Of a stretch of DNA of 64,000 nucleotides, positions 9,289 through 36,195 are shown one piece after another. The notes beneath the pieces are model-generated. The model saw nothing but the letters and a program-made list of their open reading frames with translations. It was not told the origin of the DNA and made no database searches. This DNA comes from Eledone cirrhosa (Eukaryota), in NCBI GenBank assembly GCA_964016885.1, contig OZ024741.1, forward strand, positions 153,512,001-153,576,000, written 5' to 3'. Position 1 is the first letter of the stretch. Every line of letters starts with the position of its first letter. Made by a program: the position numbers and the translations under genes.

Positions 9289-9473
9289 GGACTGGTGAGT
9301 CTGGAAAGAGTACATTTATCAAGCAGATGAGAATTATCCATGGTGCTGGGTACTCTGAAGAAGACAGAAAAGGCTTTGAAAAAATTGTTTACCAAAATAT
9401 ATTTTCAGCCATACAGACTCTTATAGCTGCAATGGAGACATTGTGTCTAGAATATAAGACTTCTGGCAATAAT
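9289..9473 (+). CDS. GNAQ: G-protein alpha-q subunit, coding exon 2 (P-loop/G1 and start of helical domain)
   Basis: Polypyrimidine tract and ttcag acceptor, then (G)[61 protein letters not shown], then gtaagt donor. GTGESGKS is the Gq-class P-loop. The 185-nt length equals vertebrate GNAQ exon 2. Confidence 0.97.
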
Positions 9474-18763: not shown

Positions 18764-18918
18764 GAAAATGCTGAATTCATAAATTCAATAGATGCAGATT
18801 CAGCTGACACATTTGACCAGTCACATGTTGATGCAATAAAGTCTCTCTGGACAGATGAAGGAATGCAAGAGTGTTATGATAGACGAAGAGAATATCAACT
18901 TACAGATTCAGCTAAATA
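18764..18918 (+). CDS. GNAQ: Gq alpha coding exon 3
   Basis: tttgcag|[51 protein letters not shown](Y)|gtaag. 155 nt, in phase with exons 2 and 4. Confidence 0.97.
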
Positions 18919-22178: not shown

Positions 22179-22307
22179 TTATCTAGATGATGTTGATCGT
22201 ATCCATGAACCTGGCTATATCCCCACATTACAAGATATTCTCCGAGTGCGAGTACCGACAACTGGTATTATAGAATACCCCTTTGATTTGGATAGTATAA
22301 TTTTTAG
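22179..22307 (+). CDS. GNAQ: Gq alpha coding exon 4 (switch I, catalytic Arg)
   Basis: tttttcag|[42 protein letters not shown](R)|gtgagt. 129 nt. Confidence 0.98.
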
Positions 22308-23711: not shown

Positions 23712-23841
23712 AATGGTTGATGTTGGTGGGCAGCGATCAGAGAGACGGAAGTGGATTCATTGCTTTGAAAATGTTACGTCCATCATGTTTTTAGTAGCCT
23801 TAAGTGAATATGATCAGGTCCTGGTGGAATCAGATAATGAG
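23712..23841 (+). CDS. GNAQ: Gq alpha coding exon 5 (G3 DVGGQ, switch II/III)
   Basis: ttttctag|[43 protein letters not shown]|gtatac. 130 nt. Confidence 0.98.
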
Positions 23842-24596
23842 GTATACTAAAAAGATATAAATTTGTCTTACATGTTTGTTAGTGTTTGTTTTCTAAGGTC
23901 TACTTCAAATAAGTAGTATTTAACTGGATTGCTGTACATTTTACTATAGCTTATATAATATGTTGTATGTATAGACCTGTAACTCTAGGAGTGCTATAGT
24001 GGATAGTGTTTCTTGGGCATTTTAAGCCAAGCAGAACCCATCCCCTCTCCAGGTCTAAGCACAGCCAGTTTCTTCAAAATAAAAAGAGTAAGAGTGATAG
24101 AGAGGGAGTGAGAAAAAAATGGAGGAAGAATCAGCTTTGAAAGGATAAAAGGCAAAGTTGATCTCTGTGGGATTTGAACTTAGAGGGCAGAGAGCCAGAA
24201 AGAATACTGCAATGCTTCTATCTGACATACTAATGACTCTGCCAATTAATCATCTAGGCATAATATAGGCTCATGCTGCCTTCTATCATAGTCCCAGTAA
24301 ATTGTTTTGATATTGATAAGAAAAAGAAAGTATTATTATTATTGAACTAGAATCAATTGAATTGATAGCTCCTGTAGTAATATAAAAAATACTTTACACA
24401 TGCACTAACATATGCATGCTCTGACTAACATCTTTTAGCTTCAGTCTGCTGTCAACACGTGTACCCACCTCAGTAGTACAAATAAAAACTATATAATTCT
24501 CACTTATTAATCTCTACATGGTAGGGTTTGAACCCATGCTTCAAGTTGCTTATCATTATTATTTTAATTTTTGTGTAAGGTCATACCTTTACATTG

Positions 24597-24912
24597 AAAT
24601 AGGCAAACAGCACAGCTCCCATGACTTTCGTAGACATTTTTTCACGCTCAGAGTTGCTGAAGCATGGAACAAACTGCCTGCGTCAGTTGTTAGCTGCCGA
24701 GACACTGCATCCTTTAAGACTCATGCTTCCCGAAATACGCCAAAACTACACCTGATGTACCCCTTCCATACACATGCACACGTGTGTATCGTGACTCGTG
24801 CACTGTTCATTTTCCTGATGTTTGTGCATTGCCCTATGTACTGTACATGCACTTTTTGATGAGTTGTGGTGCACCTGGGCACTGTACACAATATTTCATT
24901 ATTATTATTATA
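24597..24912 (+). mobile_element. CR1-group LINE 3' end (5'-truncated)
   Basis: RRHFFTLRVAEAWNKLPASVVSCRDTASFK is a CR1-like RT C-terminus, followed by a 3' UTR and an (ATT)n tail. Confidence 0.75.
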
Positions 24913-25277
24913 AGGGCCTATAGGTAATATGAGGTAAACCTAATCTGCCACATGGTTTAACACCATCACTTGTCCACTGTGTAAATTTAGCAGAGTCTAC
25001 TCTGTTGTCCAGTTTAACACCACCACTATCTGGTCATTGGGTACCTCCCAACAGTGAAGCAAACAAAAACCCTGTTTACTGTTTCCTAAAACTCCTTTTT
25101 AAATTGAGATATTTTCTGTTCATATCCACCATCCATAGATAAATAGTAAACATTTAGATTTTCAAAGTAATTATTCATTAGTTTTTGAGGATTTTAATTA
25201 TTAATCATTATTTTTTAGCAATACAAAAAAAATACATAAATTCTTTATGAATTGAAATGTTTTATTTTAAACTTTAG

Positions 25278-25478
<201 letters not shown>

Positions 25479-29726: not shown

Positions 29727-30811
29727 CTAGCGACCTCCTGGCCTTCACCCTGGTCTGTACTATGCTCAAATCTATTCATAAGGCACCTATTGGCATCTAT
29801 AGTAATGCTCATTTTCCTTAAAAGGTATTTAAATATTGCAGAACATAATTAAAAAAATTTATTTAGACTATCTAAATACAGAAACAGCCTTCTTCTAGAT
29901 GGGGACTGACAACCTGCAGTATTTGACCTTGGGACATTTGGAATGAAAGAGAACATCTGTTGGTATTAGTGGTATTCTAGGTATATATACAATGTCTTGC
30001 TTACCATATCCAGTGAGGATTTTGGCTTCGATAATGTGAGGCTGTAGTTCAAATTACAACCATATGTGTCTCGTTGCACAGTCATGGCTAATCCAGGTTT
30101 CTGTGCCCTTACACAGTTCAAGGTTGTGTGGCAGCATACTGGACGGTTCCAGACTGTTAAGAAATTCAATGAGATAATGAACAGCTTTGTCTTTGTCAAT
30201 AGATTTATAGGTCTGGCTACCTCCAGGGATCATTTGTGAGAGTTTTTGTTGATGGCATTCAATGTGATGTTTTGAAGAGTAAGGATTGCTCTTTCACGCA
30301 GCCACTCCTCAGAATGGTGGATTTTGAAATCGGGGGAACACTTAAGTTTACAATGCTTTCCACAACAGCACAAAATGATCCTTCAGTATCAAGGGATTGC
30401 TTTTAATATTTAAATGGTTGAGAGGTGCTTATCTGTAATGCCACAGGTCCCGCTCCCTTCCTGCCTCTATTATTCCCACTGAAGAAATCTCCAAGGGTCC
30501 CCCTGCCCAATTCCATTTTCAGAGAGAAGGTGATTGTAAGCATGCTGAAAAGACCTGGAAAAAAATTTGATCCCTAGCAAGTGGTTTTCTATAAATATAA
30601 ACAGCTGAGAGGTGCTTATCTGTAATTCTGAGGGTCCCTCACACATACTGCCTTCGTTTTCAGAAAAAGGAGTCATTGGCAAGTGAATCAGATGTCAGAT
30701 CGGCCAAAAGCAAGTGAAAAAACTTAATAAAACCTCCTGAAGAAATCTCTGAGACTGGGAAAATACAAGGGTCAGCCCCTTGCAAACCCTCTCTACTGCT
30801 GATATATTAGT
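29727..30811 (-). mobile_element. Helitron deletion derivative with a PIF1-like helicase remnant
   Basis: Minus strand WLRERAIL, IEFLNSLEPSSMLPHNLEL and PHIIEAKILTGYGKQDIVYIPRIPLIPTDVLF. 3' end has a degenerate hairpin then CTAG|T at 29727. The 5' boundary is approximate. Confidence 0.8.
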
Positions 30812-31966
30812 TGTTTGAAGTTGGACATTTCGTCGGGCATATTTCATTTTTGTAGCACAAACATGGCAGCATCAGAACCATTGTTGATGTATTTGCACAT
30901 ATACTTTTTAGGTTCTTCCTTCCGCCACCATTCTATTATATATTTATATATTATAGCCATATGCACTTTTCTGCGGCCTGAAAATAAGGATGTAGCAGAA
31001 TATTATAATGTTCAATTTCATTTCATGGTTGAGATTGTTTAAAGCGTTTGCTATATAGCAGGGAAATGAAATGTTAAATGGTAATAGTGATGATCATTAT
31101 TCTTTCAGCATATTTTCAATAATGTTAACACAGTCAAAATATAAAAGCAAAGAGAAGGGAACTGATATTTTCTCATGAACAGAAGTGTTAGCACATTCAT
31201 TATTATCATCATCGTTTTTACATCTACTTTCCATACTGACATAAGTTGGATGGGTTGTCACATTCTGAGGTTAGACCAAGCAGGTGACCCATGACTTGCT
31301 CATTCATTTTGCTCACACATTCACTTCTTGTCATAAAAATAATAGATAACAGCCATTAAGAAAGAAGAGTTAGCAAGTGTTTATCAAAGAATAGTTTTCA
31401 AAAATGTTCTCAGTACTACCTATGTAGACTCGGGATAAATATAGTTGTTTTTTTTAAATAATGTATTTCATGATTTGTTAATTATGTTGGTTTCAACCTG
31501 GTAACTATAATATATATTACAGTAATATTAATAATACACATAGAACTAAGAATAATAAAGACCACCACCAATTGGTACCATAATGATATATGGCTGGACA
31601 ATATGGGAGAATGCTCTCCAATAGCTTTCAAAATAATCACAGAATTTCCAATTTTTACTTGTAAATATTATTTGTAGAAAACTCCAAGCTAAAGAGAATT
31701 TGTTGTAAGGTTTCAAAAGAATTTCAATAAGAGATCTCACTAAAACTGAACCAAGGGGCAACATTGGTGTATTAGAAACTTGGCTCGGAAAAATTTTAAT
31801 CATACAAGAGAAACATGGTAAAATATTGAAAACTTGCTTTATTTTCATGAAGGCTGTTTGGTAACTAATCTTATTTTCATCTAAAGATATGTTAGTGCCA
31901 TTCTAATACTTCACTGTCATATTTGTCATCTTTATCATCTAATTACTTCCCCAACTTTGATTTCAG

Positions 31967-32074
31967 GTCCAAAGAAAGATGCACAAGCTGCCAGAGAATT
32001 CATATTGCGAATGTTTGTTGATTTAAACCCAGATCCTGATAAAATTATATATAGTCATTTCACATGTGCAACAG
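31967..32074 (+). CDS. GNAQ: Gq alpha alternative exon 7A (canonical type: alpha4, beta6, TCAT)
   Basis: tgatttcag|(G)[35 protein letters not shown](D)|gtatgt. 108 nt, phase 1-1, no stops. Very close to standard Gq sequences. Confidence 0.95.
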
Positions 32075-32130
32075 GTATGTCTTGTTAACATTGTTTGTTT
32101 CACACACCATCTGTATTCGTCTGATTTCAG

Positions 32131-32238
32131 GGCCCAAGTGTGATTATAATGCTGCTCGAGAGTATATGATGGATTGCTATATGGACCTCAATGAAGATAA
32201 GGAAAAAATGCTTTATTACCATTATACTTGTGCAACAG
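32131..32238 (+). CDS. GNAQ: Gq alpha alternative exon 7B (divergent, probable photoreceptor type)
   Basis: tgatttcag|(G)PKCDYNAAREYMMDCYMDLNEDKEKMLYYHYTCAT(D)|gtatgt. 108 nt, phase 1-1, no stops, 19/36 residues identical to 7A. Resembles the squid retinal Gq segment (from memory). Confidence 0.93.
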
Positions 32239-34559
32239 GTATGTGAGACTAAGCACAGACAAAAATAGGAGAATAGTAGCAGTCAGCACAGTTGTCTCCC
32301 TTCGCTGTTCACCTAGCCAACTCTATGAAGTAGTTTTCCATGTCACATCTTATATCTTAATTGTGAAGAAATATGGCTGACGTTTCCACTCCTGGCTTTC
32401 CATCAACAGATTTGGTCTCCAAAATATATATTTCCCTTAGTAGTACAATATAATTATGGTATTTGAATTTAATGCTTTTTTAGATTTTAGTCACTGTAAC
32501 TTCAAAAATGCACAAATACTGCAAAAAAAGCCCCTTGTTGAAGTTTGTATAATTTAATCCTTAAATGTTTAGCTCTGGTATTTTGTAGTAACCTCCAAAC
32601 TTTTGTCGTTCTTTCCCAGCTGTTTAAATGTTTTTCTTTTAGAATTAAACCCCTTTAATTAGAAATTAGTTTTCAAAATGAAAAAAGTTCCCCTTATTTT
32701 GGTGCTTGCTTTTAATGTGAAAAAAAATTGGCGTTCTGCAAAAAAAAAAAATTATCAATGTTCATGTTGAAAACAATTGAATATTAACTTATAAATTCAT
32801 GATTGTGTAAGTGTTTTGCAAAAAAATTTTAAATTGTTAAGACTTGAATCAAGCTAATATAACTGCTTAATAGACAGTTGGTAGAATATATGACACGCGT
32901 GTGTATTGTATCACAGTTTTTAGAATAGGTACGCTGTATCTCTGTATCTTGCAAGAGGCAACTAAAAAGGTGCATGTCAGGATGGCGGCTGTGTGTGTGT
33001 AGGAAATAAACTGACCAGTTTATCTATTTTGCTATAGTGAAAAACTAAAACTTTAATCTGTTGATGTTCAACTGAACAAGCTTCAAACAAATTTGTGAAG
33101 GAAGAAAAATATCATACAAAATAGATGAACAAATCTGATATTGAAATACAAACAAATTAAGATTAACAGAAAAGCTTGATTTTTTTTTTTTTTTTTTTTT
33201 TTTCCCTCTCTAAATACCTTCTTTTTTTTTTTTGCTGTTTAGTCAGGGAAAGAACACTTAAGCTGTCTAATCCATGCATGCATGGAGAGCTGGATATATT
33301 TTACAACATAGTACTAAGCACAGCTCACTCTCTTCAGGCCACCTCTATGACATGTCAGTGCTCTTTCCCCTCACTTCCATTGTAAGCAACATGTAGCCTG
33401 ATATCTTTTTACATGACAAAACACACCCAGTCCACCCTACATGAGTCACAGTAGTACCACAACAAAAAGCATCCCATCCACTCTGTCTTGGGGTCATGAC
33501 TGGTACCTCAACAAAAAGAACCCAGTCTACCCTCTACAGTGGTCATACTGGTGCCACAAGAAACACATCCTGTCCACTCTGTAAGATGGTAGCATTGATT
33601 CCACAAAAAAGCACTCAGTCCACCCTGTAGAGTGCTGGTGCCAGGAGAAAATCACTCTGGTGCTTGGCATTAGGAAGGTTATCCAACTGTAAAAAACTGA
33701 GCCTAAAATGGAATGTATGAGCAAGATGTGGTTACTTAACCTGTCTAGTCTCATAATATGGCAGCCTGTCTAACTAATGCAAGTATGAAAAACATACATT
33801 AAACAGTGATGATAATGATGATGATTGGCATATAGATATTCATCATCATCAAGGTCCACTTACCCTTCTAGCAAGTGTTGGATGGGTTTTCACTGACCAA
33901 GTCAGTACTGATGTGGGGCTACAGACCCCACCCCCACCCCCAGACAGGCCAGGAGATCACATCACTTACATAGGGTTCCACATTCTCCCAGGTGCATTTT
34001 ATCATTGCACCACCACTAGAGAGCTTGTCATATCTTTGACACAACTGGAAGGGTCTCCTAACCCTTTGGTTGGGTGCCCTTCCTATACCCCAACCACCTT
34101 ACAGAGTGTACGGGGTGCATTTTCGTGACACCACTAGAGAGGTTGTTGGTCATAGTCCCACCTGAAGAGCACTCTCTGCTCTGTGGAGTTTGTATGGGGG
34201 ATGATAGGTGTATAGCAAGGTTATGAGTAAGGGGAAGGCATGACTGATAGTATAAGGGAAGAGGGTATGTAGTGGTGTGGTCAATAGTGTGCATGGGGGT
34301 GATGGAGAAATAGCTGGAGGAGGTGTACATGGGGTAGGGAGTAGCTAATAGGGTGCAATAGTGAGGATATTTAAGGGCTTTAGAGGGGGCGTAGTTAAGA
34401 AGTGGGGGTTGGGGAGCCTCATGGATGTGTCAGGTCACATTGTATGCTTTTGCCTGGGTCTTTATCATCACAGCTTAGCACCAGCTTAGTTTCTTGAGGT
34501 TGGTCTTCACTACTTTGTCCCTAGCCTTGCTGGGTCTGACTCTTCCACTGGGATTTCTT

Positions 34560-35200
34560 TGTGCAGATGTAGGCTGTGTACTAGAGGTGAGATGGAGGGA
34601 TGCCTCAGCATAGTTACAAGCCTGTCTGGGTAAGAAATGATGATGGGGTTTGATGATCTGCCAACCATCTAATCACCTACCAATTAGGCAAACAAAAGAG
34701 CTGGGTTGACTACTTACTGGTAAGACAAGATAGACAGACAGTTATAAATGCTAATACCTTCCCTGATGAAAAATGTGCTGCCCAACGCAAGTTAATTATT
34801 AGTGACATCAGAATAAACACGAGACGAAACAAAACACGCAAGAATATATGCTAACGGAGAGTATGGAAGTTAAAGAGCCTTTCTGTTAAATATTGGTTTA
34901 GAAAGGCTCTACGGGAGGCATATTAAGTGAGGGGAGATGAACTGGATACATTTGACATGGATCACAATTGGAAATTCTTACGAGACAACCTACTGCGAAC
35001 TACTGACTTGTGGCTGAAGCAAAGCACCAACTAGGCAGAGGGTGACCTGGTGGTGGAACAGTATAGTTGAAAGAGCCATTAATGAAAAAAAACTGGAAAA
35101 ATTAGGATAGCAAAGACCAGGTAGCCAAAAGTGAAGCTGCATGACAGGTATACATAGCTCAGAAACGGGATGAAAGAAGGTGGTTTGCAAATGTCTTGTG
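34560..35200 (+). mobile_element. RTE-clade LINE remnant (end of APE endonuclease and linker)
   Basis: VDYLLVR..NANTFPDEKCAAQRKLIISDI..RRVWKLK..RVTWWWN, degenerate. Confidence 0.6.
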
Positions 35201-35696
35201 ACATAAATAGCATTGAATATATTCTTATAAGGGGTAATTTTCTGTCCAAATTCCTTTTTTATGTATTATACTTAGTGGTTAGATCGTTGGACTTATGATC
35301 CTAATGTTGTGAGTTTGATTCTTGCTCCAGTCAGCTCAGCTGAAAATGAGTGCTAGCAGTAGCTGAGAGTTAACCTGTATTATTCTCAGTCACATATTGT
35401 TAATGAAGATGAGCCTCAAGACTTGGAGCAAACTTTAACTAATGATTTAGATCTGAATATTGTTTTGTTAATTGTCTAATTGTTTGTTGTTTTTATTGCA
35501 ATCTGTCTGTAGCCATTCTTTTGTTCTATGAATTGTTGCATCATTTAAACATAGTTGCTTTTTCAGATGAGGCTTCATTCCTGGTATTAACAGTATTGTA
35601 AGAACTCATTATTTTTTATTTTTTTCCCCCACCAACCATTATTTTTATTTTAACACAAGCAAGAAAATACTTTAATATATTTCTTTCTCATTGCAG

Positions 35697-35779
35697 ATAC
35701 TGAAAACATCAGATTCGTGTTTGCAGCCGTAAAGGACACTATCTTGCAATTAAATTTGAAGGAGTACAACTTGGTCTGA
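35697..35779 (+). CDS. GNAQ: Gq alpha terminal coding exon 8 (alpha5 helix and stop)
   Basis: ttgcag|(D)[29 protein letters not shown]. The C-terminus LKEYNLV is diagnostic of the Gq family. Confidence 0.98.
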
Positions 35780-36195
35780 TTGGCTGAAGTATGGGAGCGC
35801 TTCTTGCGCCAACAGGCTGACGATGCCCGGCCATCATGCCTACTGCTACTCCTCTTCAGCAGCGGCTTTTTGTAAAAGTGTCCTTGTCATTATTAATGAC
35901 TAAACGCATTTGAAAACTAAAATCAAAGGTCGTTGTTGTTGTAAACAACAATTTATATGCCAAACTTTAATTCCCCTGCCTCGCATTAACACTGAGGATA
36001 AAAAAAACACCAGGTTTGAGAGTGACTACGACGGACAAATGTTGTGGCTGAGATATTCTGGCCATTTCACAAAAGTGGCCCAACAAACTGGTTACGATGC
36101 TAAATAATGACATCAGTTTGGTGATATATTGGTTAGAATAAGTATTGGGAGGTAAATAATTACAGGCCTGTTAGTCCAATGTCGCTCCCTTTTTA

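Follow-up and report, generated by a model that had tools for sequence, protein, structure and literature searches.

Closely similar systems have been described in arthropods. Two insect studies describe alternative splicing of Gq-alpha residues 291-326, with a derived variant that is specific to the head or eye (PMC4553527, PMC5765363). The first also describes three alternative cassettes, an additional variant lacking residues 291-326, and a phototransduction form that is head-specific (PMC4553527). The arthropod eye forms (Drosophila dGq exon 7A, Lygus LhGaq4, Anopheles Agq1) involve the same gene and the same 36-residue cassette (291-326) as the cephalopod locus analysed here. In vertebrates, the mutually exclusive exons 7-8 of GNAO1 reflect a local exon duplication, and their isoforms differ in the receptor-contacting C-terminal region; the survey in question describes the matching GNAO exons as required for receptor coupling (Lokits et al. 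2018, PMC5896119). It deals with deuterostomes, where the duplications concern a different gene or different exons, such as exon 4 of GNAQ/11 and exon 5 of amphioxus preGNAQ, and the words Octopus, Mollusca and Lophotrochozoa do not occur in its main text (PMC5896119). A steric type of mutual exclusion is described for OGDH exons 4a/4b, in which the branch point has to lie no more than about 50 nt from the upstream donor (PMC7969005).

The squid visual Gq-alpha is known from protein and cDNA records, and here we describe a genomic exon layout for it. No description of exon-level splicing of cephalopod Gq was found in the literature searched, whose coverage was thin for subscription papers, including older squid Gq work; Kingston et al. 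2015 (J Exp Biol) may already describe both Doryteuthis forms. In RefSeq both already appear, uncommented, under the names isoform X1 and isoform X2. Both isoforms are thus already deposited and the insect exon switch has long been known; what the analysis confirms is a real, conserved cephalopod pair. Overall, we consider it likely that the two tandem copies of exon 7 are used exclusively, that the spacer between them blocks their joining, that the second copy (7B) is likely enriched in photoreceptors, and that it would couple differently to rhodopsin or phospholipase C.

A Gq-alpha gene with a tandem exon 7

We found a Gq-alpha gene in the window, which is the whole 64-kb stretch of DNA that was analysed, with coding exons 2-8 all in one frame (Table 1). 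The best matches of the gene product are Gq/G11, placing it in the Gq-alpha subfamily; of 313 residues compared with a Gq record of Octopus, 2 differ, which marks the source as an octopus-type coleoid. The junctions given by an earlier note on this DNA (25473, 31967, 32074, 32131, 32238 and 35697) are correct and, as it stated, either exon completes the protein: the reading frame is free of stops up to the terminal stop with 7A or with 7B. Including both exons, or neither, also preserves the frame. The 7A-7B intron measures 56 nt, compared with 1.4-9.3 kb for the other six introns in the window.

Table 1. Features of the Gq-alpha gene (positions in the window unless stated otherwise)
Feature	Position	Strand	Remarks
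Coding exon 1	G000:C2:153463447		~48.6 kb upstream of the window
Coding exon 2	9289..9473	+	
Coding exon 3	18764..18918	+	
Coding exon 4	22179..22307	+	One copy here; duplicated in arthropods
Coding exon 5	23712..23841	+	
Coding exon 6	25320..25473	+	Upstream partner of 7A or 7B; loose contig ends before 31966 match its 3' bases
Exon 7A, conserved general form, residues 291-326	31967..32074	+	Open frame; transcript joints to exons 6 and 8
GT-AG spacer intron, 56 nt	32075..32130	+	Likely too short for splicing; same length retained in a relative's contig
Exon 7B, the derived copy, corresponding to squid visual Gq	32131..32238	+	Open frame; squid record matches
Exon 8, coding part (alpha5 helix and stop)	35697..35779	+	Single copy, common to both isoforms

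Exons 7A and 7B are both 108 nt long, open, and bounded by AG and GT. Our recount confirmed the composition reported earlier for these two intact exons: 19/36 residues are identical (63/108 nt), lysine plus arginine against aspartate plus glutamate number 5/5 in 7A and 4/7 in 7B (net charge 0 versus -3), and 7B has three Cys and six Tyr where 7A has one of each. The common acceptor and donor contexts (10 and 16 nt), which had also been noted, each occur twice in the 64-kb window, only at 7A and 7B. The two copies stand in tandem, are equal in length and phase, are homologous and have intact splice sites, as homologous mutually exclusive exons do. A search of the genome with the 7B peptide gave two matches, exons 7A and 7B themselves. 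Among the 18 codons for shared residues (first codon excluded), eight differ synonymously, indicating that the duplication is old.

We also considered a second Gq gene and rejected it after inspecting four places outside this locus. The full-length Gq query gave 25 G-alpha matches in the genome; the nine at this locus form one gene, and the 16 elsewhere have 40-70% identity. Four of the other places were inspected: three belong to other G-alpha subfamilies, and one is a stop-ridden exon-5 copy. With these four places inspected, the locus appears from its sequence to be the sole intact Gq-alpha gene found in the genome. A degenerate Gq exon 5 with two stops lies ~200 kb downstream of the window (L008:4846-4947; G000:C2 about 153775846); the 10 kb inspected there contain no further exon of Gq. 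In the intron between 7B and exon 8, repeat-derived stretches (33400-35400) attract many unrelated contigs, and a 49-nt tandem unit occupies 33454-33583.

General and squid visual forms from one gene

Comparison with human G11 (residues 291-326) gave an identity of 31/36 for 7A and 18/36 for 7B. We found that 7A is a single sequence in all 11 coleoid records, with no variable column, and that 7B comprises nine sequences among 14 coleoid records, with 11/36 columns variable. Sixteen differences between the two forms are fixed across the coleoid records. The likeness of 7A to G11 and its single coleoid sequence support the proposal that it is the ordinary form. The match of 7B to squid Gq, proposed in the earlier note, is supported as well. 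The 7B encoded here differs at 3-4 of 36 residues from six squid-type records, including AAM77353, named 'visual iGq-alpha protein', Loligo P38412 and Euprymna ACB05682, and the squid visual Gq-alpha records (these three and AKI33347) all carry exon 7B. Exon 7B is present in octopods and decapods alike. No chain with 7B was found among the best 60 of 138 matches in PDB.

Same-species pairs of proteins locate the difference between the isoforms. Over 353 residues, the Doryteuthis pealeii proteins AKI33347 (7B) and AKI33348 (7A) show 16 differences, none of them outside 294-322, and in the model pairs of Octopus bimaculoides, O. sinensis and O. vulgaris the differences are confined to the exon 7 stretch. 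Full-length 7B records exist in three Octopus species. P0012 (Logan, 7A) and Euprymna P0008 (7B), and likewise P0009/P0011 and P0013, show no differences outside exon 7, a variable Glu aside. Since the same-species pairs differ only in exon 7, squid and octopus each make the two isoforms from a single gene. The genomic layout together with these pairs supports the view that one locus encodes both isoforms, and indicates that the squid visual Gq is a splice form of the general Gq gene. Use of each exon alone is seen for 7A in transcript joints and for 7B in the protein pairs of relatives. The Argonauta gene model places 7A and then 7B in one protein, which is most likely a prediction artefact.

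The variable Glu lies at the exon 5/6 junction of squid-type Gq records (353 versus 354 aa; P0004 versus P0007), and its presence varies in both 7A and 7B forms, even within one species. Intron 5 (23842-25319) contains no candidate for an AG-GAR-GT microexon, and the extra Glu may be a decapod-only alternative splice site.

Exon 7B is predicted to make a photoreceptor-enriched isoform. This predicted enrichment is drawn from one record name and from the reported retinal origin of the other squid 7B records, P38412 and ACB05682 reportedly deriving from eye tissue. The Octopus vulgaris cDNA BAA93638 is 7A-type and was reportedly cloned in a study of octopus photoreceptors, which would place 7A in the eye as well. 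A cluster of differences in this cDNA has no counterpart in the genome and looks like cloning errors. That a reportedly eye-derived octopus cDNA carries 7A, that one record name says 'visual', and that the tissues of the sequencing runs are coded would all suit an alternative in which 7B is a general neural or sensory isoform, equally exclusive and conserved, which was cloned from eyes by sampling. We regard this as improbable, because every one of the four squid records that bear a name in the first two clusters carries 7B, because 7B is rare among assembled transcripts, and because the insect counterpart is eye- or head-specific in the studies cited above. Among the Logan proteins, 7A-type sequences were found on 50 contigs and 7B-type sequences on 3; although this is a count of assemblies and not of expression, it is as expected for a restricted 7B form.

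Transcripts and the probable exclusive splicing of 7A and 7B

We aligned 4 of 24 public runs to 29750-35900, using assembled contigs, which drop rare forms, from coded tissues and with RNA status guessed. Exon 7A was joined to exons 6 and 8 in all four runs. A GT-AG joint from 7A to exon 8 was seen in X22, X1 and X9, and in broken pieces in X6; exon-6 letters formed loose ends before 7A in X1, X6 and X9, and the X22 contig also extends upstream. Among the junctions singled out earlier for counting, those of 7A with exons 6 and 8 were thereby recovered, while the joints listed for these four runs of contigs, which carry no tissue label, included neither a spliced 7B joint nor 7A>7B (32074>32131). 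In run X6, from another organism, an unspliced contig takes in the end of 7A, the spacer and 7B, at a depth of 80 versus about 2440. It has 17 other letters and no gaps relative to the window; of the changes listed, 10 are in the spacer and five in 7B, four of the latter synonymous. These data indicate that 7A is the common form, that 7B is under coding constraint in the relative, and that the length of the spacer has been kept.

The missing 7B joints, together with a 7B piece in X22 that is an unspliced contig of depth 2.4, could point to a decaying or silent duplicate in Eledone cirrhosa. This is highly improbable given the open frame and intact splice sites, the 3-4 differences from squid 7B, the mainly synonymous change in the relative, and the full-length 7B records of three Octopus species.

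Two minor observations concern these contigs. Records P0005, P0006, P0144, P0145 and P0175 read through the 7A or 7B donor (32075-32265), and no alpha5 helix would be present in their products. The X6 contig terminates at 32265 with 13 A, beside a genomic A-rich patch, so that such contigs likely arise by internal priming on RNA that is still unspliced. In runs X1 and X9, from other organisms, 7A (31966-32071) shows no nucleotide difference over 106 nt, and exon 8 with the UTR shows 6-7 over 198. The lower change in 7A than in exon 8 or 7B suggests constraint by splicing signals, at p 0.06-0.10, which is not significant.

We propose that coleoid Gq-alpha transcripts would carry 7A or 7B, one each, and that the 56-nt spacer would block 7A-7B joining. 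Since co-inclusion and double skipping both stay in frame, the spacer likely enforces exclusivity; nonsense-mediated decay is ruled out as a filter, as both wrong forms are in frame. RNA structure was rejected as the device, because the predicted fold of the region is no more stable than that of shuffled sequences (z +1.55). Exclusivity is probably steric, since a branch point 18-40 nt before the 7B acceptor, a position we assume, would fall 16-38 nt from the 7A donor. For joint U1 and U2 loading, the steric limit cited is near 50 nt from donor to branch point, a limit from vertebrate work that may not be that of cephalopods (PMC7969005). In OGDH a distant branch point brings about exclusion, whereas here the whole intron is 56 nt and the branch point is predicted.

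Flies splice introns near 60 nt. If the 56-nt intron can likewise be spliced, as short introns are in some invertebrates, exclusivity would depend on RNA-binding repressors or RNA pairing, or co-inclusion would occur. The Argonauta model with both exons would fit this, and arthropod exons with spacers of about 155-210 nt (three genomic ORFs) nevertheless splice exclusively. We consider a non-steric basis unlikely, because the X6 contig retains a spacer of the same length unspliced, no 7A>7B joint is among the joints listed, and the folding score gives RNA pairing no support. It is likely that 7A would be the default exon and that a photoreceptor splicing factor would switch the transcript to 7B.

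Predicted function and the arthropod comparison

In G-alpha, exon 7 spans helix alpha4, strand beta6, the loop that joins them and the TCAT motif, and alpha5 is the main receptor contact. The alpha5 C-terminus is encoded by exon 8 and is identical in both isoforms. An AlphaFold model of the 7B isoform has a helix at 296-310, a strand at 319-323 and a helix at 328-349; with a mean pLDDT of 55.7, too poor for other use, it served only to place these elements. With alpha5 unchanged, the 16 fixed changes, which lie in alpha4, beta6 and the loop between them, would somewhat more probably than not alter receptor-driven GDP release or effector activation. Because the changes reach the TCAT motif, receptor coupling and nucleotide exchange are favoured over the effector side, so that receptor coupling and GDP release would be our first choice and phospholipase C activation the second. 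The term 'rhodopsin-tuned', used in the earlier note, is one predicted option, since alpha5 is shared and residue 303 is tied to the phospholipase C interface in the fly. There, V303D in the eye-specific exon 7A is reported to cause blindness, the site being assigned to the phospholipase C interface, and a V303I swap is functional (PMC5765363). We found Ile at position 303 in 7A and Met in all 7B.

The functional fly V303I swap, the many conservative changes (I>M, F>Y, D>E) and the variability of 7B at 11/36 columns would also agree with a 7B that is eye-enriched but functionally equal to 7A, the duplication serving expression or splicing control while the sequence drifted. This is rather unlikely, because 16 differences are fixed where 7A and human G11 differ at 5/36, because the 7B stem is long (1.27 per column) and its inner branches are short, and because F307Y and I317M are held in common with the derived exon of arthropods. 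The 7A/7B pair is a natural alpha4-beta6 surface swap on an identical background, useful for questions of G protein-rhodopsin tuning.

The exon switch also bears on dermal light sensing in cephalopods, the case for which draws in part on the presence of Gq transcripts and protein in skin (PMC4564192); single-cell atlases list Gq at gene level (PMC12240821). No Gq row was found in the parts searched of the chromatophore proteome supplements of PMC6397165. If both proteins come from one gene with a common C-terminus, evidence of Gq in skin stays ambiguous as long as it does not show which exon is used, and one junction count on existing data would resolve general from visual Gq.

The parallel with eye-specific splicing in Drosophila, drawn in the earlier note, stands as far as the same exon is spliced, but it is looser than claimed, as insects have three cassettes and the derived copy comes first. 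Arthropods and coleoids alike have one conserved and one derived copy of exon 7 with the same cassette boundaries. The derived copy is first in 33/33 clean double-exon arthropod models and second here and in Argonauta; two further arthropod models hold intron letters between the copies (all among 120 listed of 1444 matches). Insects swap three cassettes, whereas the octopus gene has one, and no duplicated exon 4 or exon 8 was found in 9001-40000 of the window. The arthropod spacer, with the derived copy first, measures about 155-210 nt in three genomic ORFs versus 56 nt here. Public databases contain numerous arthropod Gq models, 389 or 432 aa long (P0022-P0059), that include both copies of exon 7, or both of exon 4 and of exon 7, and these double-exon models are most likely annotation artefacts.

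To compare the derived copies, 18 of the 33 arthropod models were used, with near-duplicates and one with a deletion excluded. F307Y occurs in 9/9 coleoid and 18/18 arthropod derived copies, and I317M in 9/9 and 12/18. On average, 7B is identical to the arthropod derived exon at 16.9/36 residues versus 18.4-19.0/36 for conserved forms. In a tree of the 36 columns, 7B and the arthropod derived copies form separate well-supported groups whose mutual placement is ambiguous, and the long 7B stem (1.27 per column) is followed by short branches within 7B. The AU test on these columns rejected neither the grouping of 7B with the arthropod derived copies (p 0.51) nor that of 7B with 7A (p 0.27). The cephalopod switch would work like the arthropod eye-specific Gq splice and may or may not descend from the same duplication. 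The reversed order and the absence of exon 4 and exon 8 cassettes modestly favour an independent origin. We tentatively suggest, at slightly less than even chances, that the 108-nt Gq exon was duplicated independently in the two groups, with the order of the copies reversed, and that in cephalopods as in arthropods the spare copy became the G protein of the eye, F307 and I317 changing in parallel. If true, the same splicing switch arose by convergence in camera eyes and in compound eyes. Transcripts joining exon 6 to 7B would in that case identify genuine phototransducing cells in skin, as the earlier note proposed, and also in suckers and light organs, where counts per gene and antibodies to the C-terminus could not separate them from ordinary Gq cells.

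To look for 7B outside coleoids, a five-sequence 7B profile was run against 1.84 billion representatives and gave 298 matches (150 listed); one of the 159 scored records had 13/17 diagnostic residues, the next having 5. The 50% clustering hides isoforms and Nautilus and gastropods are absent from the set, so absence outside coleoids is not established by this search. No 7B-like exon was found in 12 Mytilus cluster members, and none of 595 pattern matches in metagenome contigs was confirmed as 7B. Rotifer-type sequences, classed by likeness, have an intron after TCAT and cnidarian-type sequences have none, which suggests that the exon-7 cassette would be a protostome unit open to repeated duplication. 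A 47-residue ORF, P0298, holds another derived exon-7 sequence, which has F307Y and F322Y in common with 7B.
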